Shown here piece by piece: positions 1-36,047 of a stretch of 42,114 nt of DNA. The DNA is from a virus (taxonomy: Duplodnaviria > Heunggongvirae > Uroviricota > Caudoviricetes), in the IMG/VR virus record IMGVR_UViG_2875703104_000005, one strand, 5' to 3'. Position numbers and translations under genes: made by a program. The notes below the pieces were generated by a model. It was given only the letters and a program-made list of their open reading frames with translations. It ran no database searches and had not been told where the DNA came from. Position 1 is the first letter of the stretch. The number at the start of each line of letters is the position of its first letter.

Positions 1-1251
1 GTGCTTACCGATACAAAATTAAAAAACCTCAAGCCGCAGGACAAACTGTACAAGGTCTCCGATCGTGACGGGCTGTATGTAGCTGTGCTTACGTCAGGCA
101 CGGTCTCGTTTCGCTATGACTACCGTATCAACGGTCGCCGCGAAACACTGGTAATCGGGCAGTATGGGCGTGACGGTATCAGCCTGGCAGAAGCGCGAGA
201 AGAACTGATTGCTGCAAAGAAGCTGCTTAAAGCAGGCCAGTCACCGGCTGCGGCTAAACGTGACGGTATCAAAAAGATTCGTGGTGCCGAGACGTTTGCG
301 GTACATACCGACAGTTATATGAAACATGTCATCCTAGCTGACAGTACCCGCGCAATGAAGCAGGTGGTGATCGACCGTGACATACTTCCGGTTCTTGGCA
401 ACAAAATGATGACTGAAATTACCACATCGATGGTTCGTGATTTGTGTGACCGGATTGTCGAACGCGGCGGCCGGGCAACAGCAGTGCAGGCCAGGGAGAT
501 CATCAGCAGCGTATACCGTCATGCCAATGACCGTGGTCATGGTTTGTTTAATCCTGCGGCTGACATTAAACCTTCGTCTATCGCCATATTTAAACCACGA
601 GAGCGAACACTGACACCAGAAGAAATTGGTCTGTTCTTCCGCACGCTGGATGCCATTGGTGCTATGGGCACTATGAAAATGGCTTTAAAGCTGGTGCTTA
701 TCACTATGGTTCGTAAAGGCGAATTCACCAATGCAACGTGGGATGAAATAGATTTTAAAAAATGGACATGGACAATTCCTTCAGACCGCATGAAGGGAAG
801 CCGGGCGCACGTTATTTACCTGCCTAAACAGGCACAGGATATATTGGTTGGGTTGCAGATGTGCGCTGGTGGAAGTGAATATCTGGTTCCTGGTCGTTAC
901 AATTTCCGGAAGCCATTATCTAATGCCGCGCTGAACTCTCTGATCGACAGAACGGTGAAAATAATAAATGAAGATGGTGAGCATATTCAGGGCTTCACCG
1001 TACACGATATGCGCCGTACAGCCAGTACGTTGTTGCATGAGGCTGGTTATCCTTCAGACTGGATTGAAAAGGCTCTGGCACATGAGCAGAAAGGTGTGCG
1101 CGCCGTATATAACAAAGCGGAATACGCCAGACAGCGCGCCTACATGTTGCAGCAGTGGGCCGATATGATTGATTCCTGGATTAACGGGGAGCATACGGAT
1201 CTGATTCCGTTCTCCCCGTCGAAGTTTGAGAAGTGGATGGCGGGGGAATAA
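1..1251 (+). CDS. Tyrosine-type phage integrase
   Basis: 416-aa ORF with C-terminal catalytic region (HDMRRTASTLL ... VRAVYNKAEY). Begins with GTG at window position 1, so the true 5' end could lie beyond the window. Confidence 0.85.
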   Translation: MLTDTKLKNLKPQDKLYKVSDRDGLYVAVLTSGTVSFRYDYRINGRRETLVIGQYGRDGISLAEAREELIAAKKLLKAGQSPAAAKRDGIKKIRGAETFAVHTDSYMKHVILADSTRAMKQVVIDRDILPVLGNKMMTEITTSMVRDLCDRIVERGGRATAVQAREIISSVYRHANDRGHGLFNPAADIKPSSIAIFKPRERTLTPEEIGLFFRTLDAIGAMGTMKMALKLVLITMVRKGEFTNATWDEIDFKKWTWTIPSDRMKGSRAHVIYLPKQAQDILVGLQMCAGGSEYLVPGRYNFRKPLSNAALNSLIDRTVKIINEDGEHIQGFTVHDMRRTASTLLHEAGYPSDWIEKALAHEQKGVRAVYNKAEYARQRAYMLQQWADMIDSWINGEHTDLIPFSPSKFEKWMAGE

Positions 1252-1254
1252 CGT

Positions 1255-1449
1255 TTAATAGTTCTGCTGATTTTCTTCCATCTCTGCTTCTGCTGCCAGT
1301 GATTCAATTTTGTTTTCGAATATTGCTGACAGTGTTGCAAATTCAGCATCAGTGACAGCGGGAATTGGAACAAACCTGATCCCGCTGTGTGCAAGCATGT
1401 TTGCAGTTTCAAGGCATTTTCTTAAATCTGCTGGTGATGCCATGTTCAT
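1255..1449 (-). CDS. Small hypothetical phage protein (64 aa)
   Basis: ATG overlaps the stop of the upstream methyltransferase gene (ATGA coupling); same operon direction. Longer ORF-track form 1255-1569 rejected because it overlaps the methyltransferase. Confidence 0.45.
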   Translation of the reverse strand: MNMASPADLRKCLETANMLAHSGIRFVPIPAVTDAEFATLSAIFENKIESLAAEAEMEENQQNY

Positions 1450-2096
1450 GCAGCACGCTCCCGCCCCTGGTTGTCTGTTGGTGACAGCGGAGAATTGCTG
1501 AATGCATTTGTTAATCCGCCAATATCCAACGCGTATCCAGGGTGTAGTTGCACTGCCGAGTCTTCGCACTGATTACCCCAAACATCGAAGCCATGAGACG
1601 ACTGGCGGGCGAACAGTTCAATGCGAGAAACATCGCCTAACAATTGCACAAGTTTTTCACGAACGACATCTGGTTTTCTTGAGTGCTCAAGCCGCGGTGC
1701 GGTAAATGACTGAACGATCCCTGCATTAATGCGCGGAGGTAGTTTTCCCTTTACCGCAAACAGGCAATCTTCACTATTGGCGCGAGTCATGTGTCCCATA
1801 CCCATAACCAGTTTATCTGGTTGTCGACTACCACATTTTATCCACGTGAAGCCCTTCATGGTCATAAGACGAAATCCCCAGGCTTCAACAACTTTTAGTG
1901 CTTCGAGTGGTTGTGTTGGCACCCACCACATGGCCAACAGACAGTTTTCAGCGGCCAAATCCCACACAGGAAGGCGGCAGATATCCAGCACACTCATAAC
2001 TGGATATTTAAAACCGGCACCGCGATTACCATCTGCGGCTTTGTCCCGGTATACCCATGGTGGATCTGCATAGATTAGCGTGTATTTCTTAGTCAT
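1446..2096 (-). CDS. DNA N6-adenine methyltransferase, MT-A70-like
   Basis: 216-aa ORF with the DPPW catalytic motif (LIYADPPWVY) near the N-terminus, typical of MT-A70/phage Dam-like methyltransferases. Confidence 0.75.
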   Translation of the reverse strand: MTKKYTLIYADPPWVYRDKAADGNRGAGFKYPVMSVLDICRLPVWDLAAENCLLAMWWVPTQPLEALKVVEAWGFRLMTMKGFTWIKCGSRQPDKLVMGMGHMTRANSEDCLFAVKGKLPPRINAGIVQSFTAPRLEHSRKPDVVREKLVQLLGDVSRIELFARQSSHGFDVWGNQCEDSAVQLHPGYALDIGGLTNAFSNSPLSPTDNQGRERAA

Positions 2097-2388
2097 AAAC
2101 CACCCCGCAACATCCTATACCGCTATAGTCTCCACGGCGAAGGCCGTTACCTTTTGTGATACATTGGTCCCTGCGAACCGCGATCCTTGCACGCTCAACA
2201 TCACCAGAAGCAACATCCATACACTGAAGCCAAAGGTGGGCGGCAATGCGGAACTGCCCTTTTTTCTCTCTTTCAATCGCGCGTTTTTCGAACTCTATCG
2301 CCGCAGGAGTAACGGCGATAACCTTTGAAGGACGGCGCATTGAAACCTTGTTCATGTGATATTTTTCAAGTCGGCTTAACTTTCTCAC
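2089..2388 (-). CDS. Hypothetical protein
   Basis: 99-aa ORF in the minus-strand early operon between the AlpA-like and methyltransferase genes; start codon uncertain (GTG at 2388 or internal ATG). Confidence 0.35.
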   Translation of the reverse strand: MRKLSRLEKYHMNKVSMRRPSKVIAVTPAAIEFEKRAIEREKKGQFRIAAHLWLQCMDVASGDVERARIAVRRDQCITKGNGLRRGDYSGIGCCGVVYD

Positions 2389-2497
2389 TTAATCCAACCC
2401 TCTCTGAAAATTAATGCCAGCAGATAAAGCCATGCTGAAACAGAGGCCAGGAATAAGTACCATCCTGACCATTTGCTCCAGTGCCTTAGCAGCGCAC

Positions 2498-2746
2498 TCA
2501 TGCAGCGTTGCTCACAGGACGATATACACGTTGCTGAACAGGAGGCTTTTTACCCTGGAACTCTGCCGGGCTTGCTGCCTGACGTTCATCAAGCCAACGC
2601 TCAACTTCGTCACGGTTCCATGCGCAGCGTTTGTCAGTGATATACCAGCGTTTAGGAAATTCCCCTGCGCGCTCCATACGGTCGATAGTGCTCCATGACA
2701 GTGGCACCACCGCCAGGAGTTCCTTCTTACCTAATGCACCTTTCAT
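2498..2746 (-). CDS. AlpA-family DNA-binding regulator / excisionase-like
   Basis: 82 aa; sequence LLAVVPLSWSTIDRMERAGEFPKRWYI matches the AlpA/Xis-type winged HTH pattern; AGAGAGG RBS upstream. Confidence 0.7.
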   Translation of the reverse strand: MKGALGKKELLAVVPLSWSTIDRMERAGEFPKRWYITDKRCAWNRDEVERWLDERQAASPAEFQGKKPPVQQRVYRPVSNAA

Positions 2747-2795
2747 AAATACCTCTCTTGGTTGCAGTGCGGCGCGCGTGGCGCCGCGGTGGTGG

Positions 2796-3737
2796 TTACA
2801 TAGATGTTTCGTTTAATTCTTCCCGACGAACGCTGTAAACGTCGGTGGCTTTTGCCAGCAGTTCGTCATCATCTGAAAGTTTCTGTTCAATGTATTTGTA
2901 AGCCTTATCCAGTTCGGAGACAGTGCTGTAATTCATCGCTGCGCTGGTAAAGGCCATCAGCATTTCTTCTGGATCACGGCTATCCGCTTTACGCGTTTGC
3001 TCATCAGGCTTTTTCACTGGTTTAGCGTTGATCAGACTGTTCATTCCCGCAGCAGTGGTCGTTTGCGGAGTAATGTCTCGCTCAACGCGCGGTGCCGTTT
3101 CCTGTAATTCGTCAGGGGTGTAGACGCCCATGATTACGTCAGGACAGTGCAAGCGAGACCAGCGTTTTGTCGCAAGGTATGCGAGTTGTTGTTTCGGATC
3201 ACTGGCCCAAAGTGTGGAGTTTCTTACCTGTGCTTGAGACAGCATTAACTCAAGCACTCGAGGTTGATCCTCGCCCTTCATGGTTGCCCATACGCGAACA
3301 CCGCAGCCTTCTTCGTCTTTTAGAGTCCAGCCTGGTGCGATATATGGATTGCCGTTTTTGGATGTTTTCTCAACAAACTTACCGATCACGCGTTCCCACG
3401 GCCCGAACCACTCGTAGTTGATGCGATCTTTTGTTGGCGACATCGTTGAGATAACTGCGTTTACTAATTGGGCTTCATAACCTAGCGTGCCGTTCACAAC
3501 ATGGGTTTTCTGAGCCACGGCAAACGGGTTCATTCCCCACTGCGCAGCCTGCATTGCCACGGCCATGCAATCAGCTGGTTTCCCGGCGAGGTGCGCCGGT
3601 ACCGTTACGCGGCTTTGCGCCATTACCTCGGCGAATTTCATCAGTTGGTTCAAGCCGTCTGGGCTGAAAATAGTTGCAGCAGTTCCAGCGATTGCTGTGT
3701 CTACTGGTGCGTTGATGTTTGCGATGTCGTTGCTCAT
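2796..3737 (-). CDS. RecT/Red-beta-family single-strand annealing protein
   Basis: 313 aa; QWGMNPF motif resembles QYGLNPW of lambda Bet. Start ATG overlaps the stop of the upstream exonuclease gene (ATGA). Confidence 0.65.
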   Translation of the reverse strand: MSNDIANINAPVDTAIAGTAATIFSPDGLNQLMKFAEVMAQSRVTVPAHLAGKPADCMAVAMQAAQWGMNPFAVAQKTHVVNGTLGYEAQLVNAVISTMSPTKDRINYEWFGPWERVIGKFVEKTSKNGNPYIAPGWTLKDEEGCGVRVWATMKGEDQPRVLELMLSQAQVRNSTLWASDPKQQLAYLATKRWSRLHCPDVIMGVYTPDELQETAPRVERDITPQTTTAAGMNSLINAKPVKKPDEQTRKADSRDPEEMLMAFTSAAMNYSTVSELDKAYKYIEQKLSDDDELLAKATDVYSVRREELNETSM

Positions 3738-4555
3738 ATGTACATATCCTGTTTGCGTGCCCACTCAGGGCGTTTAATGATTTCCACACCGCCCCATTCA
3801 TCATTGATGCGGCATTCGTGATAGGTATTCAGATCCCGGCGGAACAGAGCGTGCCCGGCATCGACATCCTGCGCATCCAGCTCGAACACGCGTACCGGAT
3901 ACCGACCACAATCAATGCTTTCGCTCACGGCAAGAAAGAAAAAACCATGCGGCTGACCAGTAACCCTCATTGCGCCTTCGCGGTACATTGCGTCCTGCAC
4001 GTGGTAGCGGAATTCCTCGATGTGGCGTGCAAAACGGTCCATATCTGCAACCTTTTTCACGTCGACGATCACGTTGTGCTCGTTCAGCCATTTGTCTGGA
4101 CGAATTCGGCACAACTCCCCCGTCTCTTCATCGTTCCAGTACATTGATGCTTCGCAGTAACCAGGTGCTTCCAACATCCAGCGTGCCGCCGGGTGAGCCA
4201 TTGCGCTATCACGCATCAGCTCCAGTTTCCGCCACTGCTCTGCATCAAGTACCGAAATCCCCATATCCGCAATATCACGAAGAAATGCCTCTTCGTCAGC
4301 TTTACCTTGTTTCGTCCGACGTTCGAATTTCGGTGAAACAATGAAGCGTTTGTCGAACTCTCCAGGCTCCAGAAGCAGACAGTGCAATGCGGTTCCCATA
4401 TCCAGTGCAGACTTTTTCTCTTCGTCTTCTGGTGCTGCCTGAACCCATTTAAGAAGCGCCGGATTCTTGGCAACCATGTCCAGTTGCGACTTACTCACGC
4501 CGTCACCGGCGTGGTAGTCTTCGTTGCTGATGTCGAAATAAATTCCCGGTTTCAT
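3734..4555 (-). CDS. PD-(D/E)XK exonuclease, recombination partner of the annealing protein
   Basis: 273 aa; N-terminal GIYFDISNEDYHA and D-x-K ... E-x-x-Y-x-x-Q block (VDVKKV ... EEFRYHVQDAMY) typical of phage exonuclease VIII-like nucleases; translationally coupled to the annealing protein gene. Confidence 0.65.
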   Translation of the reverse strand: MKPGIYFDISNEDYHAGDGVSKSQLDMVAKNPALLKWVQAAPEDEEKKSALDMGTALHCLLLEPGEFDKRFIVSPKFERRTKQGKADEEAFLRDIADMGISVLDAEQWRKLELMRDSAMAHPAARWMLEAPGYCEASMYWNDEETGELCRIRPDKWLNEHNVIVDVKKVADMDRFARHIEEFRYHVQDAMYREGAMRVTGQPHGFFFLAVSESIDCGRYPVRVFELDAQDVDAGHALFRRDLNTYHECRINDEWGGVEIIKRPEWARKQDMYI

Positions 4556-4851
4556 GCCGCGTCCCTCTGCCCATCAAGCTGATCAGCCAGATCCCAGCGG
4601 GCGATAATTGCCATTGCCTCTCGCCGGTAGGAATCCATCAGTTCTTCGAACTCTGGACTGTCTTTAGCGGCCTCCAGTACTTCCTGGCGAACGCCTTTAC
4701 CTGTTACAGCGTCGAAAGTTGAGGCCAGTTGATGAAGCCGGATGCTCTCGATCAGTTCAACTTGTCGGTCATATAGCTGTTCTGACAGGCGGTAGTCCTT
4801 GTCGAATGCCAGCATGATTTTTTGAAGATTTTTCTGCTGATTAACGTTCAT
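4552..4851 (-). CDS. Hypothetical early protein
   Basis: Start chosen at ATG 4851 (MNVNQQ) with GGAGGG RBS; overlaps the stop of the upstream small ORF. Confidence 0.5.
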   Translation of the reverse strand: MNVNQQKNLQKIMLAFDKDYRLSEQLYDRQVELIESIRLHQLASTFDAVTGKGVRQEVLEAAKDSPEFEELMDSYRREAMAIIARWDLADQLDGQRDAA

Positions 4852-4853
4852 TA

Positions 4854-5006
4854 TCAGCCCTCCCATATCTCGTTATCGTTGGCCACATCGCGAGCTTCTT
4901 TGCTGACGAAAGCCCACTTAATGCCTTCCTGTAAGGTGCGGAACTTCCAGCTCATGAATCCGCATGCAGTAACGCAGTACCAACCGTTGATGATTTTCCA
5001 CTGCAT
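4854..5006 (-). CDS. Small Cys-containing protein (50 aa), first gene of the leftward early operon
   Basis: Not in the ORF track (under 60 aa). ATG at 5006 with GAGGT RBS; stop couples to the next gene; operator-like palindrome at 5087-5103 upstream. Translation MQWKIINGWYCVTACGFMSWKFRTLQEGIKWAFVSKEARDVANDNEIWEG. Confidence 0.35.
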   Translation of the reverse strand: MQWKIINGWYCVTACGFMSWKFRTLQEGIKWAFVSKEARDVANDNEIWEG

Positions 5007-5086
5007 AACTTGTTACCTCGGTCTGTTACCGTTGAGGTAATAATTATGCGTATTTGGTTTGATGTCAATAGATATGAGTTAAAAAA

Positions 5087-5103
5087 ATTACCCATTAGGT
5101 AAT
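5087..5103. promoter_or_regulatory. Operator-like palindrome ATTACC-CATTA-GGTAAT (leftward early promoter region)
   Basis: Perfect 6-5-6 inverted repeat between the repressor-gene terminator and the leftward operon start. Confidence 0.55.
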
Positions 5104-5112
5104 AGTATAGGC

Positions 5113-5138
5113 AATAAAAAAGCCGCCAGAAGGCGGCT
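5113..5138 (-). terminator. Intrinsic terminator after the repressor gene
   Basis: Stem AGCCGCC/GGCGGCT with loop, followed on the minus strand by TTTTTATT; about 20 bp past the repressor stop. Confidence 0.65.
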
Positions 5139-5159
5139 TACTTACTGAAAAATATGATT

Positions 5160-5744
5160 TTATTGTTTGTTTTTTTCGTTCTGGTTGATGACAAATTCAA
5201 TGTAACTTTCGATCTTTGCTTTCTCGGTTTCGGGTAACAATGCGTAGCGCGAGCGGTCATAGTTGATGGTCGCAGGGTCGTGCGGGTGAATCAGTAATTC
5301 ATAGCCGTGACGCCCGAATGCTGATGCAACATTCTCCAGGGTGGAAATGGAAACACTGACCTCATTGTTTAACAGGCGGCTGATTGTCACCTGGGCGACG
5401 CCGGATGCGCGGTGAAGTTTTCCCTGAGTTGAAAGGTCGCGGCTTTCGCTCATCCAGCGTTCCAGGTTGTGAGCCGCCAGCTGACCAATGTCGCTTGGGC
5501 CGACAGGCTGAAAACCTTCCTGAGAAAGCGAGCGATCGATATCAAGCCAGTTACGTGGTTTATTGGCGGCAGCTTCAATTTTTCGCGCAACCTGGTCGCC
5601 GATAACCTTCTTGCCAAGAGCCCAGCGGTTTACCAGATTTGCCTGAGTTCCAAGTTTTTCTGCCATCCGCGTCTGAACACCATTGAATTCACGGTCGATC
5701 AAGTCGTTGAGATTTTGCCTGCGGACGTCCTGGATACTTTTCAT
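5160..5744 (-). CDS. CI-like repressor with two HTH domains, no S24 peptidase domain
   Basis: 194 aa; two XRE-type HTH segments (AEKLGTQANLVNRWALGKK and ASGVAQVTISRLLNNEVSVSISTLENVA); no Ala-Gly/Ser-Lys autocleavage module. Divergent from the Cro-like gene across a three-site operator region. Confidence 0.6.
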   Translation of the reverse strand: MKSIQDVRRQNLNDLIDREFNGVQTRMAEKLGTQANLVNRWALGKKVIGDQVARKIEAAANKPRNWLDIDRSLSQEGFQPVGPSDIGQLAAHNLERWMSESRDLSTQGKLHRASGVAQVTISRLLNNEVSVSISTLENVASAFGRHGYELLIHPHDPATINYDRSRYALLPETEKAKIESYIEFVINQNEKNKQ

Positions 5745-5798
5745 TTTCTGGAAAATCGCCTCATATATGAATCAGTAGATGATTCAATTTAAAGCAAT

Positions 5799-5863
5799 AT
5801 TACCCAACAGGTAAATGCACCTCATGGGTAACTATCCTTGATTTTTGTTACCTTATGGGTGAA
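5799..5863. promoter_or_regulatory. Three-site operator cluster between repressor and Cro-like genes
   Basis: ATTACC-CAACA-GGTAAA (5799-5815), degenerate TGCACC-TCATG-GGTAAC (5816-5832), GTTACC-TTATG-GGTGAA (5847-5863). The last lies in the spacer of a plausible rightward promoter (TTGTTA 5845-5850, TATTAT 5868-5873). Confidence 0.6.
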
Positions 5864-5898
5864 TATTTATTATCTGAAATAAATATCAGGCAATAGCT

Positions 5899-6129
5899 AT
5901 GAGCGATAACGGACATTTCGATTTCAAAAAGCACTGGCTTGCACTTACTCCGGATGAGCGTGAAGCCTTCGCACAGGAAGCCGGAACGACGAGTCACTAT
6001 ATCCAGACTCACTTAACAGGTAAGCGCAAAATGCCAGGTAAAGTATTGATGAATGGGCTTTTTAAAGCCTGTAAAACAAGACAATGGCTGCGCTCAAAAG
6101 CAGAACTGGCATACTTCTTCTACTCATGA
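5899..6129 (+). CDS. Cro-like small DNA-binding protein
   Basis: 76 aa, first gene of the rightward operon, divergent from the repressor gene; followed by a tR1-like terminator. Assignment is mainly positional. Confidence 0.5.
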   Translation: MSDNGHFDFKKHWLALTPDEREAFAQEAGTTSHYIQTHLTGKRKMPGKVLMNGLFKACKTRQWLRSKAELAYFFYS

Positions 6130-6150
6130 TATCCAGCTACAACCCTCTGT

Positions 6151-6175
6151 AGACCGCCACCCGGCGGTCTTTTCA
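6151..6175 (+). terminator. tR1-like intrinsic terminator after the Cro-like gene
   Basis: Stem GACCGCC/GGCGGTC, loop ACCC, then TTTTCAT. Confidence 0.6.
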
Positions 6176-6183
6176 TATCTATT

Positions 6184-6200
6184 CGTACCTCAAAGGTAAT
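6184..6200. promoter_or_regulatory. Degenerate operator-like site CGTACC-TCAAA-GGTAAT
   Basis: One perfect half-site, one 4/6; between the tR1-like terminator and the zinc-ribbon gene. Confidence 0.3.
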
Positions 6201-6277
6201 AAAAAACCAAATCTGGTTGATCAAATTTTCCAATTGTGCAAAATAGCCAATATCAATAACAAAAAGGGGCGGAAAAA

Positions 6278-6490
6278 TTGAAGATAGTAACCAGAATGGA
6301 GGCCGCAAAAGCCGGGTTAAATCGCTATTTCACAGGAAAGCGGTGCCGTCACGGCCATCTCTCTGAAAGGTATGTTCTGAACGGAACATGTGTTGAATGT
6401 GCAATGAATAGCGCCAACCGCCATCGTAATGAATTTGCTTGTGCACTAAAGAGTGCAAGAGGGGAAACCTATGGCAAGCAGCTGGATTAA
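6278..6490 (+). CDS. Small zinc-ribbon protein in the cII position
   Basis: CRHGH ... CVEC arrangement; start ambiguous (TTG 6278 or ATG 6296); no recognisable similarity to lambda CII. Confidence 0.4.
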   Translation: MKIVTRMEAAKAGLNRYFTGKRCRHGHLSERYVLNGTCVECAMNSANRHRNEFACALKSARGETYGKQLD

Positions 6491-7301
6491 GGTTGAAGTT
6501 ATCACTCCTGATAAACCTGAAATTTTTCAGATAGCAGAAATTCTGGGTATTGATCCAGATGCTGTTCTTGGAAAGCTGGTTCGTATATGGGCATGGGCTG
6601 ACCAGCAAACAATAGACGGTAACGCTGGCAGCGTTACAAAAGGAGTACTTGATAGACTCGCTTTTATTACAGGATTTGCTGACGCCCTCATTAGCGTCGG
6701 ATGGCTTGCTTATCATGACGGCAAACTAATTCTTCCAAACTTTGAGCGACATAATGGAGAATCATCGAAAAAACGTGCACTTACGAATAGAAGAGTGGCA
6801 GAGCATCGAAAACGAGTAACGCAAAAAGTAACGCCAACAGCGTTACAAAAGGAGTTACCAGAGGAAGAGGAAGAGGAAGATATATATAAAACCCCACACA
6901 TAGCGCACGTGCGCGAGGGTGCTCCGACCAGTGAAGCGAACGGTATGCCGTTGCAGGTGGCTGAACCTGAATTTCTGGATGGCCTGAGTGAACCCATCGG
7001 GAAATTTCCGATGACCGATGGCTGGCATCCGTCGCCGGATTTTCGACGGCGTGCTGCGCTGTGGGGAACGGCCCTGCCGGAACCGGAATTTACACCTGCT
7101 GAACTTGCTGCATTCCGGGATTACTGGATGGCTGAGGGCAAAGTGTTCACGCAGGTTCAGTGGGAACAAAAATTCGCCAGGCACGTAAATCATATCAGGG
7201 GAAAATCAAAAAACGCCGGGAAAAGCGATGAGCTTGACTGGAATAACACTGACTGGATAGAAGGGGTGTGGGATGAAATCAACTCCAGAACTTCTCAATG
7301 A
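6471..7301 (+). CDS. Replication initiator / replisome organizer (O-like, DnaT-like C-terminus)
   Basis: N-terminus MASSWIKVEVITPDKPEIFQIAEILGI and C-terminal DnaT-like block (FRDYWMAEGKVFTQVQWEQKFARHV); sits directly upstream of the P-like gene. Start set at ATG 6471 with AGAGGGG RBS. Confidence 0.65.
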   Translation: MASSWIKVEVITPDKPEIFQIAEILGIDPDAVLGKLVRIWAWADQQTIDGNAGSVTKGVLDRLAFITGFADALISVGWLAYHDGKLILPNFERHNGESSKKRALTNRRVAEHRKRVTQKVTPTALQKELPEEEEEEDIYKTPHIAHVREGAPTSEANGMPLQVAEPEFLDGLSEPIGKFPMTDGWHPSPDFRRRAALWGTALPEPEFTPAELAAFRDYWMAEGKVFTQVQWEQKFARHVNHIRGKSKNAGKSDELDWNNTDWIEGVWDEINSRTSQ

Positions 7302-8049
7302 GTACGATCGCTTACGTGAGCATGGTGTTGCTGTGCATGAAGAGCGGCGTGACAGCAATGGCAAAAAGGAGCAGGTTGCTAGAATTTTCAATGAACTATT
7401 TGTCCAGTTACAGGCTGCATTTCCTGCAAGCGTTTCGACCATAAGGGAGCAGAACAAACTTAATGAATTCCGTAAGCAATGGATGCTTGCGTTTCTGGAG
7501 AATGGGATCACAACAATGGAACAGGTTAACGCTGGTATGCGCCACGCCCGCGCCAGTGAATCTCCGTTCTGGCCGTCGCCTGGGCAATTCATCAAGTGGT
7601 GCAAAGACAGCAAGATGGTTCTTGGCGTCACCATTGACGATGTGATGGCGGAGTTTCACCGGTACAGCAAGGAAAAAAGTTTATATCCTGGTGGTCCCGA
7701 AAGATTCCCGTGGCGACATCCGGTTATGTACTGGGTCGTATGTGATACCCGCCGTGCAATGTATCAGCGCCAGCTTAGCGAGATTGAGGTTGAGAAACAC
7801 GCGCGCAGGCTGCTCGATGATTGGGCGAAAAAGGTGGCTTCCGGACAGCAGATACCCGATCCGGTGATCAGCATACAGGCAAAGCCAGAACCCATGAGTA
7901 CACCTCCGGACACAGGGAGAGACGTTTACCATCCACCAGGGCGAAGTTTCGGGTGTATGCCTAACGCCGCCACCCTGGGGGGAATAACACCGGCGCAGTG
8001 GCTGATGGAGGAATACAGGCGGGGAAAGGCGGCAGGATTTATCAAGTAA
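7273..8049 (+). CDS. Replication protein P-like helicase loader
   Basis: ENGITTMEQVNAGMR ... SPGQF block closely matches lambda P; 258 aa. Confidence 0.8.
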   Translation: MKSTPELLNEYDRLREHGVAVHEERRDSNGKKEQVARIFNELFVQLQAAFPASVSTIREQNKLNEFRKQWMLAFLENGITTMEQVNAGMRHARASESPFWPSPGQFIKWCKDSKMVLGVTIDDVMAEFHRYSKEKSLYPGGPERFPWRHPVMYWVVCDTRRAMYQRQLSEIEVEKHARRLLDDWAKKVASGQQIPDPVISIQAKPEPMSTPPDTGRDVYHPPGRSFGCMPNAATLGGITPAQWLMEEYRRGKAAGFIK

Positions 8050-8054
8050 TACCA

Positions 8055-8074
8055 GCGCGATAGCGCATTTTTTT
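8055..8074 (+). terminator. Weak intrinsic terminator after the P-like gene
   Basis: Short GCGC/GCGC stem followed by ATTTTTTT. Confidence 0.35.
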
Positions 8075-8085
8075 ACGTCTTGATA

Positions 8086-8102
8086 ATTACCTGTTGGGTA
8101 AT
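8086..8102. promoter_or_regulatory. Operator-like palindrome ATTACC-TGTTG-GGTAAT
   Basis: Perfect half-sites, after the terminator that follows the P-like gene. Confidence 0.5.
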
Positions 8103-8147
8103 AAAATATTCTAAACTCTATTGATTTCGTGTCTTATGTGGTTTTTA

Positions 8148-8164
8148 ATTACCTCAGGGGTAAA
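8148..8164. promoter_or_regulatory. Operator-like palindrome ATTACC-TCAGG-GGTAAA overlapping an RBS
   Basis: Ends 3 bp before the ATG of the 8167 gene and overlaps its Shine-Dalgarno. Confidence 0.45.
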
Positions 8165-8166
8165 TC

Positions 8167-8511
8167 ATGAGAAAACAGATACAGGCTCTTGGTCGACTCA
8201 AAACAGGCCAGATGAACAAAACAGAATCTGTGTATTGCCAGCACCTTGAGCTGCGTAAACGTGCAGGGGAAATCGCCTGGTATCGATTCGAGGGTATCAA
8301 GCTGCGGTTAGCTGATAACACGTTCTATACGCCAGATTTCGCTGTGATGCTCGCCACCGGAGAGATGGAACTGCACGAAGTGAAAGGTTTCTGGACCGAC
8401 GACGCCAGGGTGAAAACCAAAGTCGCCGCAGATCAATATCCGTTCCGAATCATCGGGGTAACTGTTAAGCCAAAGAAAGCAGGTGGCGGATGGAAAATCG
8501 AAGAGTTCTGA
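8167..8511 (+). CDS. Putative PD-(D/E)XK-type nuclease (DUF1064-like)
   Basis: 114 aa; YTPDF ... ELHEVKG resembles a D-x(n)-E-x-K nuclease core; preceded by two operator-like palindromes. Confidence 0.45.
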   Translation: MRKQIQALGRLKTGQMNKTESVYCQHLELRKRAGEIAWYRFEGIKLRLADNTFYTPDFAVMLATGEMELHEVKGFWTDDARVKTKVAADQYPFRIIGVTVKPKKAGGGWKIEEF

Positions 8512-8572
8512 ATCGACGATCTTTTTAGTTATCAATGTAATCAATAAGTTATGTGGATAAGCGAGGGTAAAG

Positions 8573-9136
8573 ATGGAAAGTAATATCAAAGGGTTAGTTG
8601 CCGCCGGGCATGAGATGGCTTCGGAACTGAAAGCAGAATGTGGTGCCGTTGATATGCGCAGTGTGGCAAAGCTGATCAGCGATTTGGCAACGCAACTGGA
8701 AGTGCAACTGGTGCGTGCTAATGCGCTGGCGGCGGAGAATGCACTTGCTCGTAAAGCTGTTCAGGCATTCTGTGAGGTTGTTGGCGACAACACTGAGATT
8801 ATCTCCGAGTTGGTTGGGCAAGATGACGTTCTGGTTATTTTGAAGGCCATGAAGGCAACAGGAAATATGTCAGCCACCGATGCTTTCCTGGCTGAAATAC
8901 GTGCGGAGGCACGCAACGAGGGGATTAACTATACCGCCAGCCGTCTTGCTGCTGCGTTCAATCACGGATTTATCAATAAGTCTTTGCGTGAAGTTTTCGA
9001 CGTTACACGCATGATTTTGTCAGCGAAAGAAGAGTTGGCTAATGAAGCGCATCCGATTGATGGCCTGTCTGGTGAATATGCGGAGAAATCCCTTGAAGAA
9101 TGGGCGGAACAGATTCGCAAAGGAAGCAGCCAGTGA
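8573..9136 (+). CDS. Hypothetical nin-region protein
   Basis: 187-aa ORF with GAGGG RBS; no recognisable motif. Confidence 0.5.
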   Translation: MESNIKGLVAAGHEMASELKAECGAVDMRSVAKLISDLATQLEVQLVRANALAAENALARKAVQAFCEVVGDNTEIISELVGQDDVLVILKAMKATGNMSATDAFLAEIRAEARNEGINYTASRLAAAFNHGFINKSLREVFDVTRMILSAKEELANEAHPIDGLSGEYAEKSLEEWAEQIRKGSSQ

Positions 9137-9423
9137 ATATCGACACGACAATAACGATCGATACGCTCCTAAATACCGGTCTGGCACTTCTCGGTTGGCT
9201 TTACATCATGTCCCGTACATGGCGATGGCTGGGTTCCATTTTCCTAAAACAGTGGAAAAAACGGCGCAAACAGGAACTACGCCAGAAGGCATTAGAAGCG
9301 TTCTATGACGCATTTGAGCTTAGCCGCATTGAACCAGGTACAACAGCCAGGATAGCGACAAAAGGCGACCTGATGATAGTGATGTTCCGACAGGAGAGAG
9401 CAGAGAAAGGGGAATCAGCATGA
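9133..9423 (+). CDS. Hypothetical small membrane protein
   Basis: GTG start overlapping the upstream stop; hydrophobic segment LLNTGLALLGWLYIM; AGGAAG RBS. Confidence 0.4.
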   Translation: MNIDTTITIDTLLNTGLALLGWLYIMSRTWRWLGSIFLKQWKKRRKQELRQKALEAFYDAFELSRIEPGTTARIATKGDLMIVMFRQERAEKGESA

Positions 9424-9680
9424 AATTTTCCAAATTTTCTGAGTTGGTGAATCGTATTTTGTCCAACAACCACAGCCATCGTCGCGATATGGATGTAACA
9501 ATCGTTGTTCATTCGCCTGGCAGCATTGGTTCAACACCTTCAGTTGAGGTTCAGTCAATTCACGCTGGTTTTGATTGGGATTCCGGGAAAGTGCTTATTT
9601 TCCCATCACAGCCACTGACCACGCTAACACCAGAACTGGATGCTCTCTGTGGCGAAAAGAGAAACCAGACTGGCAGATGA
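9420..9680 (+). CDS. Hypothetical protein
   Basis: 86 aa; ATG overlaps the upstream stop; AAGGGG RBS. Confidence 0.45.
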   Translation: MKFSKFSELVNRILSNNHSHRRDMDVTIVVHSPGSIGSTPSVEVQSIHAGFDWDSGKVLIFPSQPLTTLTPELDALCGEKRNQTGR

Positions 9681-9893
9681 TGTAAGGCTATTGCGCCAGG
9701 AGGAACAGGAAAGGCGGAAAAATATAGAAAAGTTAATTTAGATTGAGCGTAACGCGAAAGCGCGGATATGCAGGGCGACAAAATCCAGAACTGAATAATT
9801 AAATTTAGCACTGTAAATAAAATCAAATCCTTAACCGGAGGGATTTCTGCACCCTCAGAACATCAGGAGGCCGTCCGAAAGGGCGGTAGTGAA

Positions 9894-10076
9894 ATGCGAA
9901 AATTCAAAATAATTATTGAAACGGGAATAGCCGGTGGAGATTTCGAGGATGAATTCGAAGTGGATGATGATGCAACACCAGATGAAATACAGGATGAAGC
10001 TAAAGATATTTTCTTTAACTACTGCAATTACTCATACCACGAAATAAAAGACGAAGAGGAAGAACAAAATGGCTGA
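9894..10076 (+). CDS. Small acidic hypothetical protein
   Basis: 60 aa, very acidic C-terminus; follows a 213-bp noncoding gap. Confidence 0.4.
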   Translation: MRKFKIIIETGIAGGDFEDEFEVDDDATPDEIQDEAKDIFFNYCNYSYHEIKDEEEEQNG

Positions 10077-10245
10077 TTTTGGTTCAACTAAATATAACGC
10101 CAGTTTTGAAGAATGGCATGAACTGTTAATGGATTATGCAGAGTTACGCGGTGGAAGTGCCGCTGATGCTGAAGCATGGCGTGATGATTATGAAGCAGGG
10201 AAAACACCGGTCGAAGCATATTGTGATGAGTGGGGCGATGAATGA
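10069..10245 (+). CDS. Small protein (58 aa), C-terminal 34 aa shared with the 10602-10829 product
   Basis: Not in the ORF track; ATG 10069 overlaps the upstream stop. Its 3' part lies inside the first copy of the tandem duplication. Confidence 0.4.
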   Translation: MADFGSTKYNASFEEWHELLMDYAELRGGSAADAEAWRDDYEAGKTPVEAYCDEWGDE

Positions 10246-10601
10246 GCGAGATTAATTATCAGGAAGGGCATGAAAAGGTAGGGCAGGCAAAACCAGTGGC
10301 ATGGCGATATCGCTACGTGAAAAAAGGCGTTACAGACTTTCAGGGGAAGCAGTGGGTTGGTGACTGGAAATATGTCCCGACAAAAGAGGATTGTAACGAC
10401 AGACCAAACTATGAAATTCAGGCGTTATTCACGGCCCCGCCAGCTTCGGTGACATCAGAAGGACTGGTTAAAGCTGTGCGCTTTTATGAACAGGTACGGC
10501 GTGAGGATCCGCCAGTTGAAACCGGAGCATGGAAAGACGCTATTGACTGGGTACTCAAGGAGGCCTGCCTGGTTGTAAACACGGGCATCAAAGGAGGCTG
10601 A
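10242..10601 (+). CDS. Hypothetical protein, paralog A
   Basis: 119 aa; first about 78 residues identical to the 10826-11185 product, C-terminal part diverged. Confidence 0.55.
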   Translation: MSEINYQEGHEKVGQAKPVAWRYRYVKKGVTDFQGKQWVGDWKYVPTKEDCNDRPNYEIQALFTAPPASVTSEGLVKAVRFYEQVRREDPPVETGAWKDAIDWVLKEACLVVNTGIKGG

Positions 10602-10829
10602 ATGGGTATTGCCGCAAGTTATACCATGCATCTCTATTGTGATTGCCGCCAGTGTACGGATGGCAAATATCAGTCGCCAGATTTTGGTGAGTATATCGGT
10701 ACGTCATGGGCTGGCTGTGCAACAGAGTTACGCGGTGGAAGTGCCGCTGATGCTGAAGCATGGCGTGATGATTATGAAGCAGGGAAAACACCGGTCGAAG
10801 CATATTGTGATGAGTGGGGCGATGAATGA
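10602..10829 (+). CDS. Small Cys-rich protein (75 aa), chimeric across the duplication junction
   Basis: Strong AAGGAGG RBS; N-terminus unique (CDCRQC), C-terminal 34 aa identical to the 10069-10245 product. Confidence 0.45.
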   Translation: MGIAASYTMHLYCDCRQCTDGKYQSPDFGEYIGTSWAGCATELRGGSAADAEAWRDDYEAGKTPVEAYCDEWGDE

Positions 10830-11185
10830 GCGAGATTAATTATCAGGAAGGGCATGAAAAGGTAGGGCAGGCAAAACCAGTGGCATGGCGATATCGCTAC
10901 GTGAAAAAAGGCGTTACAGACTTTCAGGGGAAGCAGTGGGTTGGTGACTGGAAATATGTCCCGACAAAAGAGGATTGTAACGACAGACCAAACTATGAAA
11001 TTCAGGCGTTATTCACGGCCCCGCCAGCTTCGGTGACATCAGAAGGACTGGTTAAAGCAGTACGCTTCTATGAACAGGTAAAGCGCGAGAATCCGCCAGT
11101 CGAAACCGGAGCATGGAAAGACGCGGTTGACTGGGTGCTCAAAGAGGCTTGCCAGGCTGTAAACATTGGTACCAAAGGAGATTGA
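10826..11185 (+). CDS. Hypothetical protein, paralog B
   Basis: 119 aa; lies in the second copy of the tandem duplication. Confidence 0.55.
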   Translation: MSEINYQEGHEKVGQAKPVAWRYRYVKKGVTDFQGKQWVGDWKYVPTKEDCNDRPNYEIQALFTAPPASVTSEGLVKAVRFYEQVKRENPPVETGAWKDAVDWVLKEACQAVNIGTKGD

Positions 11186-11186
11186 T

Positions 11187-11960
11187 ATGAGCACTTTTAC
11201 CGACAAAGAACTGATTAAAGAAATCAAAGAGCGCATAGGCAGCCTGGACGTGAGAGACAATATTGAGCGCCGGGCTTATGAAATAGCGTTAGCCTCGCTG
11301 GAAGCAGAACCGGTGGCGTGGATGCGTGATGACGCAGATGGTCGTGAGTATAACGCTCGCAATGAATTTTCTGGTGGAGGGGGAGGAGTTCCACTCTACG
11401 CCACCCCTCCAGTGCCAGTAGTACCGGAAGAAAAACCAATGCCTAATCCTCTTAGCATGTACGCGGTTGATGCTGTTGCCGCTATTGCAGAGGTGAGAGG
11501 CTGGAACGCCTGCCGCGCCGCCATGCTTCATGGTGCCGAACCTGCAAGTAATCATGAAGAGTTGCCACTTGATTATCTCCAAGGTCAAAAAGATGGTCTT
11601 GAATGGGCTGCGCAGCTTGCAGAAGCAAATCACCCACAAACTGGCGACTGGCTTTACGATGACCCGCTGGAGCTGGCTAAAGCTATCAGAAAAGGTCCTG
11701 ACATGCCCGAATTCGATGGACCAACTCCGGTAACTCTGGATGGTTGGATAAGCTGTAGTGAGCGAATGCCTGAGAACATTCCCGGAAGTTGTAAAGAGTA
11801 TCTGGTGTTTGATGGGCTTAATAATAAAGTTCATCACGATTACTGGGTTGTCCCTGATGGAGACAGTGCGCCAGTTGCGTCGTTCTGGAATCATTACGGG
11901 GCACATGTAACTCACTGGATGCCTCTACCAGAACCGCCGAAGGAGGTTAACCGTGGCTAA
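11187..11960 (+). CDS. DUF551-like nin-region protein
   Basis: C-terminal THWMPLPEPP motif characteristic of DUF551 phage proteins; start set at ATG 11187 with AAAGGAG RBS. Confidence 0.5.
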   Translation: MSTFTDKELIKEIKERIGSLDVRDNIERRAYEIALASLEAEPVAWMRDDADGREYNARNEFSGGGGGVPLYATPPVPVVPEEKPMPNPLSMYAVDAVAAIAEVRGWNACRAAMLHGAEPASNHEELPLDYLQGQKDGLEWAAQLAEANHPQTGDWLYDDPLELAKAIRKGPDMPEFDGPTPVTLDGWISCSERMPENIPGSCKEYLVFDGLNNKVHHDYWVVPDGDSAPVASFWNHYGAHVTHWMPLPEPPKEVNRG

Positions 11961-12234
11961 CCTGCAACTTGCCGTTAAAGGTGAATACTTCGATGCCATG
12001 ATTCGCGGGGAGAAAACGGAAGAGTATCGCCTGTGTAATGACTACTGGAATAAGCGCCTCGTTAACCGTAAGTATTACCGCCTGATTATCACAAAGGGAT
12101 ATCCGAAGCGCGAAGACTTCAGTCGCAGAATTGACGTCCCGTATAACGGATATGAAATAAAGACAATCACACATCCGCACTTCGGTGATAAACCGGTAAA
12201 GGTGTTCGCGATAAAGGTAAATATTGATGGCTAA
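11953..12234 (+). CDS. Small hypothetical protein, possibly ASCH/DUF3850-like
   Basis: 93 aa; GTG start with AAGGAGG RBS; fold assignment is tentative. Confidence 0.4.
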   Translation: MANLQLAVKGEYFDAMIRGEKTEEYRLCNDYWNKRLVNRKYYRLIITKGYPKREDFSRRIDVPYNGYEIKTITHPHFGDKPVKVFAIKVNIDG

Positions 12235-12565
12235 ATCAGCAGCAGAGCGCAAAGCCGCTCAGAGAGCCAGACAAGCTGCATCTGGTGTGCGTAAGCTGGA
12301 GATTGTGCTTGATGCTCAGGAAATTGAAATTCTGGAGCGTAACTGTGCCACGCGTCGCCCCGGGCGTGCGCCTTACGAATTTGGTGAGTATATAGCGTTA
12401 CTGATCCGCCAGGATGATGCACGCGTGCACGGGCGTATAAAATCGATCAGCAGAACACGTTGCGGTAAGTGCGGCGAGAGAGTTCCAGTTAATTCATGTC
12501 CGTGTAATGGTGACTCACAATGCTGGGTGACTAAAGGCTGGCATGAAACGAAATTAATAGTGTGA
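12227..12565 (+). CDS. Zinc-finger protein in the Q position (candidate late-gene regulator)
   Basis: Basic N-terminus and C-terminal CGKCG ... CPC cluster; last early-region gene, directly followed by a 14-mer repeat, a terminator, and an operator-like site before the terminase genes. Confidence 0.4.
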   Translation: MAKSAAERKAAQRARQAASGVRKLEIVLDAQEIEILERNCATRRPGRAPYEFGEYIALLIRQDDARVHGRIKSISRTRCGKCGERVPVNSCPCNGDSQCWVTKGWHETKLIV

Positions 12566-15416: not shown

Positions 15417-15493
15417 TGGCGTGGCATGCAGGATTCGAACCTGCGACCAACCGCTTAGAAGGCGGTTGCTCTGTCCAACTGAGCTAATGCCAC
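15417..15493 (-). tRNA. tRNA-Arg (anticodon UCU), phage-borne
   Basis: 77-nt cloverleaf read directly: acceptor GTGGCAT/ATGCCAC, D-arm GCTC AGTTGGACA GAGC, anticodon loop CTTCTAA, T-arm GCAGG TTCGAAT CCTGC, discriminator G, CCA. Closely resembles enterobacterial argU-type tRNA. Confidence 0.8.
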
Positions 15494-32836: not shown

Positions 32837-32983
32837 GTTGATAGTAGTGACAAATTTGAAACATCGCTGGTTGTAAGCCAGCAGATGCTCGTTATTTTAC
32901 GTCGCGGCACAATTTCTCGCTGCTGGCTCTTTTACACACATTAACCAAATATGGTTGATTTTAATGTTTGTCTGTGTCTATCA

Positions 32984-33000
32984 TTACCTTTGCGGTAAAT
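32984..33000. promoter_or_regulatory. Operator-like palindrome ATTACC-TTTGC-GGTAAA at the start of the left anti-repressor leader
   Basis: Marks the start of the inverted-repeat leader that precedes the Bro-N anti-repressor gene. Confidence 0.5.
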
Positions 33001-33090
33001 TTACACCGCACTCCTCTTGTGCCATAGTAATCGGGCACTGGCAAAATCCAGTGCCGGGATTGGCGTCCCGGATTACTAAAAGGCGCATTC

Positions 33091-33110
33091 ACCGCGCAAG
33101 CGGTTTTTTT
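33091..33110 (+). terminator. Leader terminator / attenuator upstream of the Bro-N anti-repressor
   Basis: Stem ACCGC/GCGGT with GCAA loop and a 7-T run, about 100 nt downstream of the operator-like site. Confidence 0.5.
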
Positions 33111-33267
33111 ATGCGTATAGCACGGCCACATTCGTATTATGGTGGGCTGTGTGGGGGCACCGAAAGGTGCGCCGGGTCCTTTTAGCCGGTTACGCCAACC
33201 CTGCACAGTTCACCACCAACCGATTGGCGTCGGTAGTGGTGATTAACCAGACTAAAAGGTAACCACT

Positions 33268-33963
33268 ATGACAGCTACAAAAAGCACGTCCATTTTTTCT
33301 TTCGAATCTCAAGCCGATATACGGGTAATCGTCATTAATGGTGAGCCATGGTTTATCGCTTCAGATGTTTGTCGGGCTATAGGCATAGCAAACCATCGAG
33401 ATGCTGTTCGAAAACTTGATGATGATGAGAAGGGCGTCGCTTCAACCGACACCCCTGGCGGTGAGCAAGAATCGATCATTATCTCCGAGTCAGGCCTCTA
33501 CACACTGATCCTCCGCTGCCGCGATGCGGTGACACCAGGCACTATCCCATACCGCTTTCGTAAATGGGTTACAGGTGAGGTTCTTCCTCAGATCCGCCGC
33601 ACCGGAAGTTACATTAAAAACTCGCTCCCGCAGGAAGAACGCATAAAGATGGTTGCCGACCAGGTAGCCAACGCCACGGCGTCAGCAGTAATGCAGGCGA
33701 TGAAGATAGAGAACAAAACCTACAGTGCCCCGCTGAAGCCCGGCTACCGCAGCCTGATTCATTCGCCGTCGGGTGTTCTCGGCCTGACGGAGAACTCACT
33801 GCTGATGAATCTGCTGAACCAGTTACAGGAAGACGGGCACGACGTATCGGGCGCGGCGGCGGAACTGACCACCATGTTCTGCTACATCGTCGGTGTGAGC
33901 AAATGCCTGCGTGATATCCAGACGCACGCGGAGTACATCAACGACAAGGCAGGGTTCTTCTGA
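33268..33963 (+). CDS. Anti-repressor, Bro-N N-terminal domain with shared C-terminal domain
   Basis: 231 aa; Bro-N pattern (IRVIVINGEPWFIASDVCRAIG ... ESGLYTLILRCR); C-terminal 80 aa identical to the C-terminus of the 35074-35730 product. Confidence 0.7.
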   Translation: MTATKSTSIFSFESQADIRVIVINGEPWFIASDVCRAIGIANHRDAVRKLDDDEKGVASTDTPGGEQESIIISESGLYTLILRCRDAVTPGTIPYRFRKWVTGEVLPQIRRTGSYIKNSLPQEERIKMVADQVANATASAVMQAMKIENKTYSAPLKPGYRSLIHSPSGVLGLTENSLLMNLLNQLQEDGHDVSGAAAELTTMFCYIVGVSKCLRDIQTHAEYINDKAGFF

Positions 33964-33990
33964 CGGGCGGCGGCACAGGGATGTGCCTTT
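33721..33990. repeat. Inverted repeat, anti-repressor C-terminal domain, left arm (partner 35048-35316)
   Basis: About 240 bp coding the shared 80-aa domain plus about 25 bp of 3' flank; only about two mismatches seen. Confidence 0.8.
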
Positions 33991-35047: not shown

Positions 35048-35316
35048 TTTTGCACGTCCCTGTGCCGCCGCCGTCAGAAGAACCCTGCCTTGTCGTTGAT
35101 GTACTCCGCGTGGGTCTGGATATCACGCAGGCATTTGCTCACACCGACGATGTAGCAGAACATGGTGGTCAGCTCCGCCGCCGCGCCCGATACGTCGTGC
35201 CCGTCTTCCTGTAACTGGTTCAGCAGATTCATCAGCAGTGAGTTCTCCGTCAGGCCGAGAACACCCGACGGCGAGTGAATCAGACTGCGGTAGCCGGGCT
35301 TCAGTGGGGCACTGTA
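35048..35316. repeat. Inverted repeat, anti-repressor C-terminal domain, right arm
   Basis: Reverse complement of 33721-33990 with about two mismatches. Confidence 0.8.
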
Positions 35317-35730: not shown

Positions 35731-35888
35731 GATGGCGTCTCCACTTAGCGAATTACATCACCACCGCTGAGACCAATCAGATGGTGGTGAACTGAACGGA
35801 GTTGGTCTTACCGGCCTAAGTGGTACCGGCGTCCTTTCGGACCCCCATTCAGCCCACCATAATTCTGGCATGACTGTGCTATACGCAT

Positions 35889-36017: not shown

Positions 36018-36047
36018 TATAAGCACTCCACTTGGTAATTACAAACC

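Follow-up and report, generated by a model that had tools for sequence, protein, structure and literature searches.

A probable recombination scar between two prophages of one Escherichia coli clone at an apparent tandem duplication

Rad52-like phage recombinases drive exchange between temperate phages and resident prophages, and the mosaics found between phages and prophages have a median length of 400–500 bp, with a trace of homology on a flank in approximately 30% of cases (PMC3945230). Whether a non-homologous route to mosaicism exists was left open for approximately 70% of mosaics (De Paepe et al., PMC3945230). Joints that combine homologous and illegitimate steps are also known from E. 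coli, where ligation of linear DNA followed by a single crossover yields duplications approximately 10 times more commonly than homology-facilitated illegitimate recombination occurs (PMC3240628).

We analysed one stretch of 42,114 nucleotides (hereafter the window; IMG/VR virus record IMGVR_UViG_2875703104_000005), in which a recent tandem duplication of small genes had been predicted. The backbone of the window is a resident prophage of E. coli MCJCHV-1, here P1, and the DNA that sets the window apart from P1 at this locus is found in a second prophage of the same strain, P2. We consider it likely that the locus is a recombination scar, left when a P2-type segment entered P1 by homologous pairing in a block that the two prophages share, together with one illegitimate joint. 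On this reading, two prophages of one clone would have produced a mosaic patch specific to the strain, by a known process of which the locus is a clean but unremarkable example.

Repeat geometry and the chimeric reading frame

Base-by-base comparison of the window with itself revealed a direct repeat in which positions 10139–10600 recur at 10723–11184, with a start-to-start spacing of 584 bp. The chance expectation for the longest exact repeat in 42 kb is approximately 15 bp, against 336 bp observed. The original prediction spoke of a tandem unit of approximately 584 bp, and this value holds as a spacing but not as a unit present twice in full: the homologous copies are 462 bp each and a unique spacer of 122 bp (10601–10722) parts them, so that the array amounts to approximately 1.8 units. 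The perfectly identical part of the copies, 10139–10474 and 10723–11058, both on the plus strand, measures 336 bp rather than the 334 bp first given, and its identity is indeed perfect. Beyond it, the predicted divergence of the remainder was confirmed as 21 differences in 126 bp (83.3% identity), continuing up to 10600 and 11184 at the end of the 119-aa genes, where similarity stops. No similarity between the copies was found on either side of the homologous 462 bp. The differences are thus very unevenly placed (0 in 336 bp against 21 in 126 bp; Fisher p=4e-13), and they amount to 10 synonymous and 8 non-synonymous codon changes (18 changed codons).

The reading frames are those described originally, all on the plus strand. 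An intact gene for a 58-aa protein, here X (10069–10245; phrog_519, function unknown), is identical to WP_000753053.1 of P1, P2 and strain NCTC86. It is followed by a first 119-aa gene (10242–10601), a 75-aa ORF (10602–10829), a second 119-aa gene (10826–11185) and a gene for a 257-aa protein with a DUF551 domain (11187–11960; Pfam PF04448, E=1.6e-13). The first 119-aa gene, allele A, is the P2 allele (WP_001289989.1, phrog_660), its DNA being 100% identical to 6104–6463 of the P2 record L005, and the second, allele B, is the resident P1 allele (WP_032153985.1, phrog_660), whose usual downstream neighbour in P1 is the DUF551 gene. Between the two 119-aa products there are 8 residue differences, all of which lie beyond residue 85, near the C-terminus. 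The 58-aa and 75-aa products have different N-termini and an identical C-terminus of 34 aa (E25–E58 in one, E42–E75 in the other).

The suspicion of chimeric small ORFs proved correct. The 75-aa ORF splits into two PHROG halves, residues 1–44 aligning with positions 1–44 of phrog_926 and residues 42–75 with positions 100–137 of phrog_519. It consists of residues 1–40 of the product of a P2 gene, here Y, a joint codon ACA (T41) and residues 25–58 of X. The ORF is a fusion of Y with the 58-aa gene because the allele-A tail and 121 nt of Y are joined in frame to the middle of X. At the illegitimate joint (10722–10727), Y (ending in GTGCAA) meets X (beginning with CAGAGTTACGC); the sequences read GGCTGTGCAAAAGAGGCACG in Y, GATTATGCAGAGTTACGCGG in X and, in the window, GGCTGTGCAA followed directly by CAGAGTTACGCGG. 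Homology at the exact crossover point, 10722/10723, is zero, and an interrupted AGAG match lies just after it, an imperfect microhomology of 4 out of 5 positions (AAGAG in Y, CAGAG in X). The fusion retains the Shine-Dalgarno sequence and start codon of Y, as well as the ATGA stop/start overlap of X with the following 119-aa gene, and translational coupling to allele B has therefore probably been retained.

Parentage of the segments in two prophages

Outside the locus the window is P1. Positions 1–9636 and 10723–42114 are 100.000% identical to E. coli MCJCHV-1 (NZ_CP030111, 1361740–1403371), corresponding to 2741–12376 and 12981–44372, each at 100%, of the P1 record L006. P1 is a prophage adjoining guaA. 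According to its annotation, the early region is lambdoid, with an integrase, RecT and a PD-(D/E)XK exonuclease, a repressor and replication genes, and the virion genes are epsilon15-like (capsid staple gp10 and a core protein of the T7 gp14 family). The gene order in P1 is DUF7167, X, 119-aa allele B and DUF551, with one copy each, and gene Y is absent.

The original prediction had proposed looking for single-copy versions in related prophages, and these exist: a form shorter by 584 bp is present in at least 31 complete genomes at 98.7% identity. Thirty complete genomes have the P1 backbone in the single-copy form of the MCJCHV-1 type, and at least six of them belong to ST1193 as named in PMC11488385, where MS10858, MS8320, MS8324, MS10711, 09-02E and MCJCHV-1 are listed under that type. 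Collapse of the repeat would convert the window form to the reference form, so that the duplication could be older than a recent gain implies.

The second parent was found in the same strain. Over 1,093 bp, window positions 9635–10727 depart from the P2 prophage of MCJCHV-1 (at approximately 2.68 Mb) in a single base, the joint base 10723. Among the genes of this lambdoid element are ydaS/ydaT, hokD, rusA and Q, and at the locus the order is DUF7167, X, 119-aa allele A, Y (71 aa, phrog_926) and DUF4014, with no DUF551 gene. The description of the region as nin-like fits by position, since it lies downstream of replication gene P in both prophages and, in P2, between P and rusA/Q. The P2 sequence is also present in NCTC86, an unrelated strain, and in many others, and the left and right parentage of the window was recovered again when it was compared with NCTC86 and with L001.

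P1 and P2 are identical to each other over window positions 9637–10474 (plus strand; approximately 840 bp), where no mismatch to either L006 or L005 was observed. This shared block contains the DUF7167 gene (9894–10076), X and the first 233 nt of the 119-aa gene. In both prophages it is annotated with the same accessions (WP_001224665.1 and WP_000753053.1). Past 10474, identity between the two prophages drops to 83% as far as the 119-aa stop codon, after which they are unrelated. The 19 mismatches between the window and P1 all fall within 10475–10588. A tract of 248 bp (10475–10722, plus strand) is diagnostic of P2, comprising the 3′ end of allele A, its stop codon and the first 121 nt of Y, with 0 mismatches to L005 6337–6584. 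From left to right, the window therefore runs from P1 through the shared block into the P2 allele-A tail and 121 nt of Y, then into the middle of X and back into P1 (3′ part of X, allele B and DUF551). Each 119-aa tail is linked to its own downstream gene, A to Y and B to DUF551.

These data bear directly on how the repeat arose. The prediction had been a duplication followed by replacement of one 3′ end, in other words an intragenomic tandem duplication of a resident 584-bp unit with later divergence or gene conversion. Adjacent direct copies with a perfect 336-bp block, joined by a novel joint between unit end and unit start (Y to X at 10722/10723), are what such a duplication would leave. 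However, the single-copy P1 has neither Y nor the allele-A tail, so that the whole repeated unit is not present in the parent, and those 248 bp are P2 sequence. The spacer cannot have been copied from P1, because P1 has no Y, and the copy-1 tail and spacer recur with 100% identity in another prophage and in unrelated strains. Nor are the differences spread as they would be after duplication: 17% divergence, with 10 synonymous changes in 126 bp beside none in 336 bp, cannot follow a recent duplication, and both tails exist as separate alleles elsewhere. We therefore regard self-duplication as hardly credible. What stands of the prediction is that two paralogous copies lie side by side, that the small ORFs are chimeric, that the event is recent and that one copy differs in the history of its 3′ end; the idea that a resident unit was duplicated does not stand. 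The differences between the tails are best read as pre-existing alleles, because 21 of them are confined to 126 bp with none in 336 bp, and the 336-bp identity of the copies is explained by the identical block of approximately 840 bp that P1 and P2 already had in common. An insertion sequence or other mobile element was rejected as the cause, the spacer being the 5′ end of gene Y. As regards adaptive amplification (an 'accordion'), two copies only are present, and they are different alleles.

The pattern is that of a mosaic patch. The tract is nearly identical to P2, which is otherwise unrelated, both flanks are 100% P1, and existing homology lies at a boundary (9637–10474, the last 336 bp of which are repeated at 10723–11058, with 83% identity to the gene end). 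The block in P1 is itself mosaic in appearance; it fits the 'HR trace' of De Paepe et al. (PMC3945230), because its left flank is non-homologous and its right flank is 83% identical. Two backbone variants carry different patches at this place, from which we conclude that the P1 segment has been exchanged repeatedly: in the AHB7 variant, the P2-like tract is longer and extends further left, with X, allele B and DUF551 in single copy, and the E15 variant has neither X nor the 119-aa gene. Donor and recipient types occur together in one host lineage, both loci being present in MCJCHV-1, EcPF40, SCU-204 and WP3-W18-CRE-03, and the P2 block occupies a second locus in at least four single-copy P1-backbone genomes. 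The donor allele is widespread, with more than 250 records at ≥99% identity, and the co-resident P2 is accordingly the most economical candidate donor.

The two joints and possible routes of the exchange

The window differs from P1 at a second place. An upstream ORF of 86 aa, similar to phrog_6026 (9420–9680, plus strand), carries a window-specific in-frame deletion of 99 bp (33 codons), the joint lying at 9633–9636 (GAAC). The missing stretch corresponds to L006 12377–12475, the match picks up again at about 12475, and GAAC repeats flank it. These 99 bp are ancestral, as they are found in MCJCHV-1 and in the E15 backbone variant (L007), where the ORF continues intact. The deletion lies approximately 1.1 kb upstream of the repeat and is a second change private to the window. 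Its right end falls within approximately 5 bp of the left edge of the P1/P2 homology, a coincidence that a simple import model leaves unexplained and that hints at a more complex single event.

Both joints are rare. The k-mers GGCTGGCTGTGCAACAGAGTTACGCGGTGGA and CTAACACCAGAACTGGATGCTCTCTGTGGCG cover them, and neither the right joint (26-mer) nor the left joint (31-mer) was found in viral, species-representative genome or metagenome contigs. In BLAST searches with 200-bp queries spanning the joints, both were absent from 5,426 complete E. coli genomes, which gave only two-piece matches corresponding to the parental arrangement, and the right joint, the only one searched there, was not found with its 200-bp spanning query in 50,697 phage records. 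The 75-aa chimera and the 86-aa deleted protein had no exact match in a collection of 153 billion genes; this absence carries little weight, since contigs assembled from short reads would end in the shared repeat before either ORF was complete.

Such rarity raises the question of an assembly or library artefact that joined reads of P1 and P2 through their shared repeat. The identical repeat of approximately 840 bp is not spannable by short reads, and both joints are unique to this sequence. Mis-joining via the repeat would, however, run on into the downstream genes of P2 and not return to P1 at a novel, non-homologous junction. Moreover, two novel junctions would each require supporting reads, and each of them preserves the frame and coincides with a microhomology of the kind usual in real illegitimate recombination, which makes an artefact very unlikely.

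A real structure of this kind could also have been read in the wrong direction, the duplicated form being older and the approximately 30 sequenced complete genomes having collapsed via the 336-bp repeats. Deletions between direct repeats of such length are frequent, and collapse between these two yields exactly the reference P1; with zero SNPs in 41.5 kb, there is nothing by which to root the difference. Against this, the locus is single copy in all 30 MCJCHV-1-type genomes and in AHB7, an independent variant, and the joint occurs in no other record searched. The window also carries the clearly derived 99-bp deletion and hence is not an unmodified ancestor, and more events are needed than for a private gain. 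We judge the reversed direction to be decidedly improbable.

Gain of a P2-type segment, the reading that we favour, would have proceeded as follows. At the start, P1 would have had a single X, allele B and DUF551, and P2 of the same clone X, allele A and Y. The two prophages would already have shared the identical block of approximately 840 bp, reaching from upstream of the DUF7167 gene to nt 233 of the 119-aa gene. The imported segment would span at least the stretch from the allele-A tail to nt 121 of Y. One side of the exchange would have been homologous, inside the identical block, with 336 to approximately 840 bp usable for pairing; the other would have been illegitimate, leading from Y to the middle of X at the imperfect AGAG microhomology. 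Extended homology at one joint and zero to a few nucleotides at the other are indeed what the identical block and the interrupted AGAG at the Y/X boundary present. Because the point in the recipient reached by the illegitimate joint is upstream of the anchor, the outcome would be a gain of 584 bp that resembles a tandem duplication, with the resulting gene order X, 119A, the Y–X fusion, 119B and DUF551. As a consequence, the prophage would have gained the 119-aa gene a second time, as another allele, together with a truncated Y that ends in the tail of X, and would have kept the translational coupling to the downstream gene. Since the direct repeats are perfect over 336 bp, the structure should be unstable, and its collapse would restore the exact reference P1. 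We infer that the gain took place in this lineage with the co-resident P2 as donor, the enzymes being either RecA or the phage RecT and exonuclease. Candidates for the latter, by inference only, are the RecT-family recombinase (2796–3737) and PD-(D/E)XK exonuclease (3734–4555) of P1, which together occupy 2796–4555 on the minus strand and take their annotation from L006 5536–7295, 100% identical to the window.

Three routes would give the same product and cannot be told apart from sequence alone. In the first, end-joining could have made a circle of a 584-bp fragment of P2, from CAGAG in X to GCAA in Y, which one crossover within the 336-bp block then inserted into P1. The second would be homology-facilitated illegitimate recombination, or a template switch from P1 to P2 in the block and back to P1 at AGAG. 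In the third, a microhomology-mediated tandem duplication would have formed inside P2 and then been transferred into P1 by double homologous exchange. No Chi sites, considered as possible hot spots for breaks, were found in 9300–11500, the three Chi sites of the window being far away, and no hairpin-forming inverted repeats were found near the joints within the same interval.

The two private changes might instead be the product of a single complex event, such as MMBIR-like template switching or gap repair, leading from P1 12376 into P2 and back into P1 in X, with the loss of 99 bp and the gain of 584 bp occurring together. We consider this conceivable but unlikely, and the same holds for its equivalent formulation, the replacement of P1 12377–12980 by a 1,086-bp P2 tract with microhomology joints at both ends. 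In its favour, the two private rearrangements are separated by 1.1 kb, the prophage being otherwise unchanged over 41.5 kb, they bound exactly the P2-identical stretch 9635–10727, and both joints show short microhomology. However, the left-joint microhomology is 4 bp (GAAC) if the event took place within P1 and only 2 bp (AC) with P2 as the partner; window positions 9637–10474 can be assigned to neither parent; and a right end inside perfect homology would be expected to pair homologously, not at AGAG. If a single event did occur, the locus would be a natural record, legible base by base, of how mosaics form by the non-homologous route, and the clone would still contain both parents.

Gene products and comparison with known systems

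The genes involved offer few clues to a role. The only families that the 58-aa, 119-aa and 71-aa proteins match are PHROGs without an assigned function, and the approximately 1,000 homologues of the 119-aa protein are all labelled 'hypothetical'. In these homologues, exchangeable N-terminal leaders and C-terminal tails, DUF551 fusions included, surround a conserved core (PVAWRYRY...KEAC); the leaders are variable and end in EAEPVAW. An AlphaFold2 model of the 119-aa protein, built from an alignment of 27 sequences, was unusable (mean pLDDT 43.6). When the 119-aa protein was compared with the N-terminal part of the DUF551 protein as a possible paralog, BLASTP returned only the short PVAW motif (E=0.31), although both proteins match phrog_660. 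We saw no sign that the rearrangement has given rise to a new function.

In setting, the genes resemble the Ead/Ea22-like and DUF551 accessory genes of lambdoid early and nin regions, with which they share position, neighbours (DUF7167, DUF551, DUF4014 and ead/Ea22-like) and the modular shuffling of N-terminal leaders and C-terminal tails. Unlike that set, the 58-aa, 119-aa and 71-aa proteins have no match in Pfam, NCBIfam, PADLOC or PDB sequences.

Significance is otherwise limited, since accessory genes of unknown function in one lineage are concerned and mixed homologous and illegitimate mosaicism is well established. What the locus offers is a view, at single-base resolution, of the birth of a new mosaic joint and a chimeric ORF between prophages of one host, with both parental sequences surviving in near-identical genomes of the same clone. 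It also illustrates that what looks like a 'recent tandem duplication' in a prophage may have been imported from a paralogous element, and arguments from copy number and paralog divergence that use sequence only can therefore mislead.

Among described processes, microhomology-mediated tandem duplication in bacterial chromosomes gives a similar outcome, with adjacent direct repeats, a novel joint at very short homology and an expected instability, but here the copies do not come from one resident segment, and one of them brings an allele and a gene fragment of another element. The likeness to homology-facilitated illegitimate recombination, or to ligation followed by a single crossover (PMC3240628), is that one end is homologous and the other has 0–5 nt of homology and, for the ligation route, that the homologous segment is duplicated. 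That work concerned conjugated plasmids at lacZ, whereas the DNA here would have come from a prophage in the same cell or from an infecting phage, by a presumed route.

The mosaics between phages and prophages described by De Paepe et al. (2014, PMC3945230) are likewise short, near-identical tracts between otherwise different genomes, in this case lambdoid and epsilon15-like, with lower but above-background identity on one flank (the 'HR trace') and none on the other. The tract is close in size to their reported median of 400–500 bp, and the recipient encodes a Rad52-like (RecT) recombinase. The locus departs from those mosaics in that one joint, the second, is an illegitimate one on the upstream side of the anchor, giving a gain with duplication and not a replacement, and in that a single clone allows the product to be compared with its two parents base by base.

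Further exchange within the same backbone segment

Two structural variants of the prophage backbone carried by the window were found in the same segment, one in Escherichia coli AHB7 (L008; NZ_OZ547152, 5110345-5115086) and the other in E. coli E15 (L007; NZ_CM143879, 1369326-1373832). In AHB7, the tract resembling P2, the second lambdoid prophage of strain MCJCHV-1, reaches approximately 460 bp further left and includes the WP_000403780.1 gene in intact form together with a portion of an ead/Ea22-like gene. The E15 variant lacks the DUF7167 gene, the 58-aa gene X and the 119-aa gene. This segment of the prophage backbone is a site of recurrent exchange.

Upstream of the block in P1, the resident single-copy reference prophage of MCJCHV-1, lies an ORF (L006, 12160-12524; approximately 9420-9680 in the window) that is truncated relative to the intact and longer gene of the E15 variant (L007, 1953-2500), being cut off where an older mosaic joint connects it to the P2-type block. 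The homology at this joint, where ...GATTGAACT meets GGATGCTC, is short and imperfect, and in the DNA that it has in common with P2 the P1 ORF uses another reading frame than P2's own gene. Given this truncation and difference in frame, NCBI PGAP labels the ORF a pseudogene with a missing C-terminus.

In the window, this ORF (9420-9680) additionally lacks 99 bp, in frame, compared with all 30 reference genomes, with the joint at 9633-9637 and GAAC repeats on either side of the deletion. The left edge of P1/P2 homology lies within approximately 5 bp of the right end of the deletion. Both this deletion and the 584-bp duplication 1.1 kb downstream of it were found in the window alone.

Other features of the window

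The antirepressor/BRO region contains nested inverted repeats that bracket a BRO-N gene and are flanked by a partial antirepressor pseudogene on one side and by an intact, oppositely oriented ant gene on the other. The inner repeat (33708-33966 and 35071-35329) is 259 nt long with 96% identity and arms 1.1 kb apart, while the outer arms (32974-33243 and 35757-36026) are 76-87% identical; this arrangement could have arisen by inverted duplication, or the segment could be invertible. Between the terminase and portal genes, on the minus strand at 15417-15493, the window carries a phage-borne gene for tRNA-Arg with the anticodon TCT.

Shuffling of the 119-aa protein core and related records

Among homologous proteins (P0040-P0108), the core of the 119-aa protein is joined to many differing N-terminal leaders, each ending in the motif EAEPVAW, and its C-terminal tails also vary, with 119-, 148- and 170-aa forms as well as DUF551 fusions. 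The N-termini of the 187-aa ORF (8573-9136) and the DUF551 protein (11187-11960) of the window match two of these leaders. Recombination among these accessory genes may use the region of the EAEPVAW motif as a linker.

The phage record PP818812.1 ('Actinobacillus phage vB_Apl-pPE4'), attributed to Actinobacillus pleuropneumoniae, contains a hok-family gene and is 92-95% identical at the nucleotide level to the E. coli prophage block described here; either its host assignment looks doubtful or the phage looks to be an E. coli-type lambdoid.
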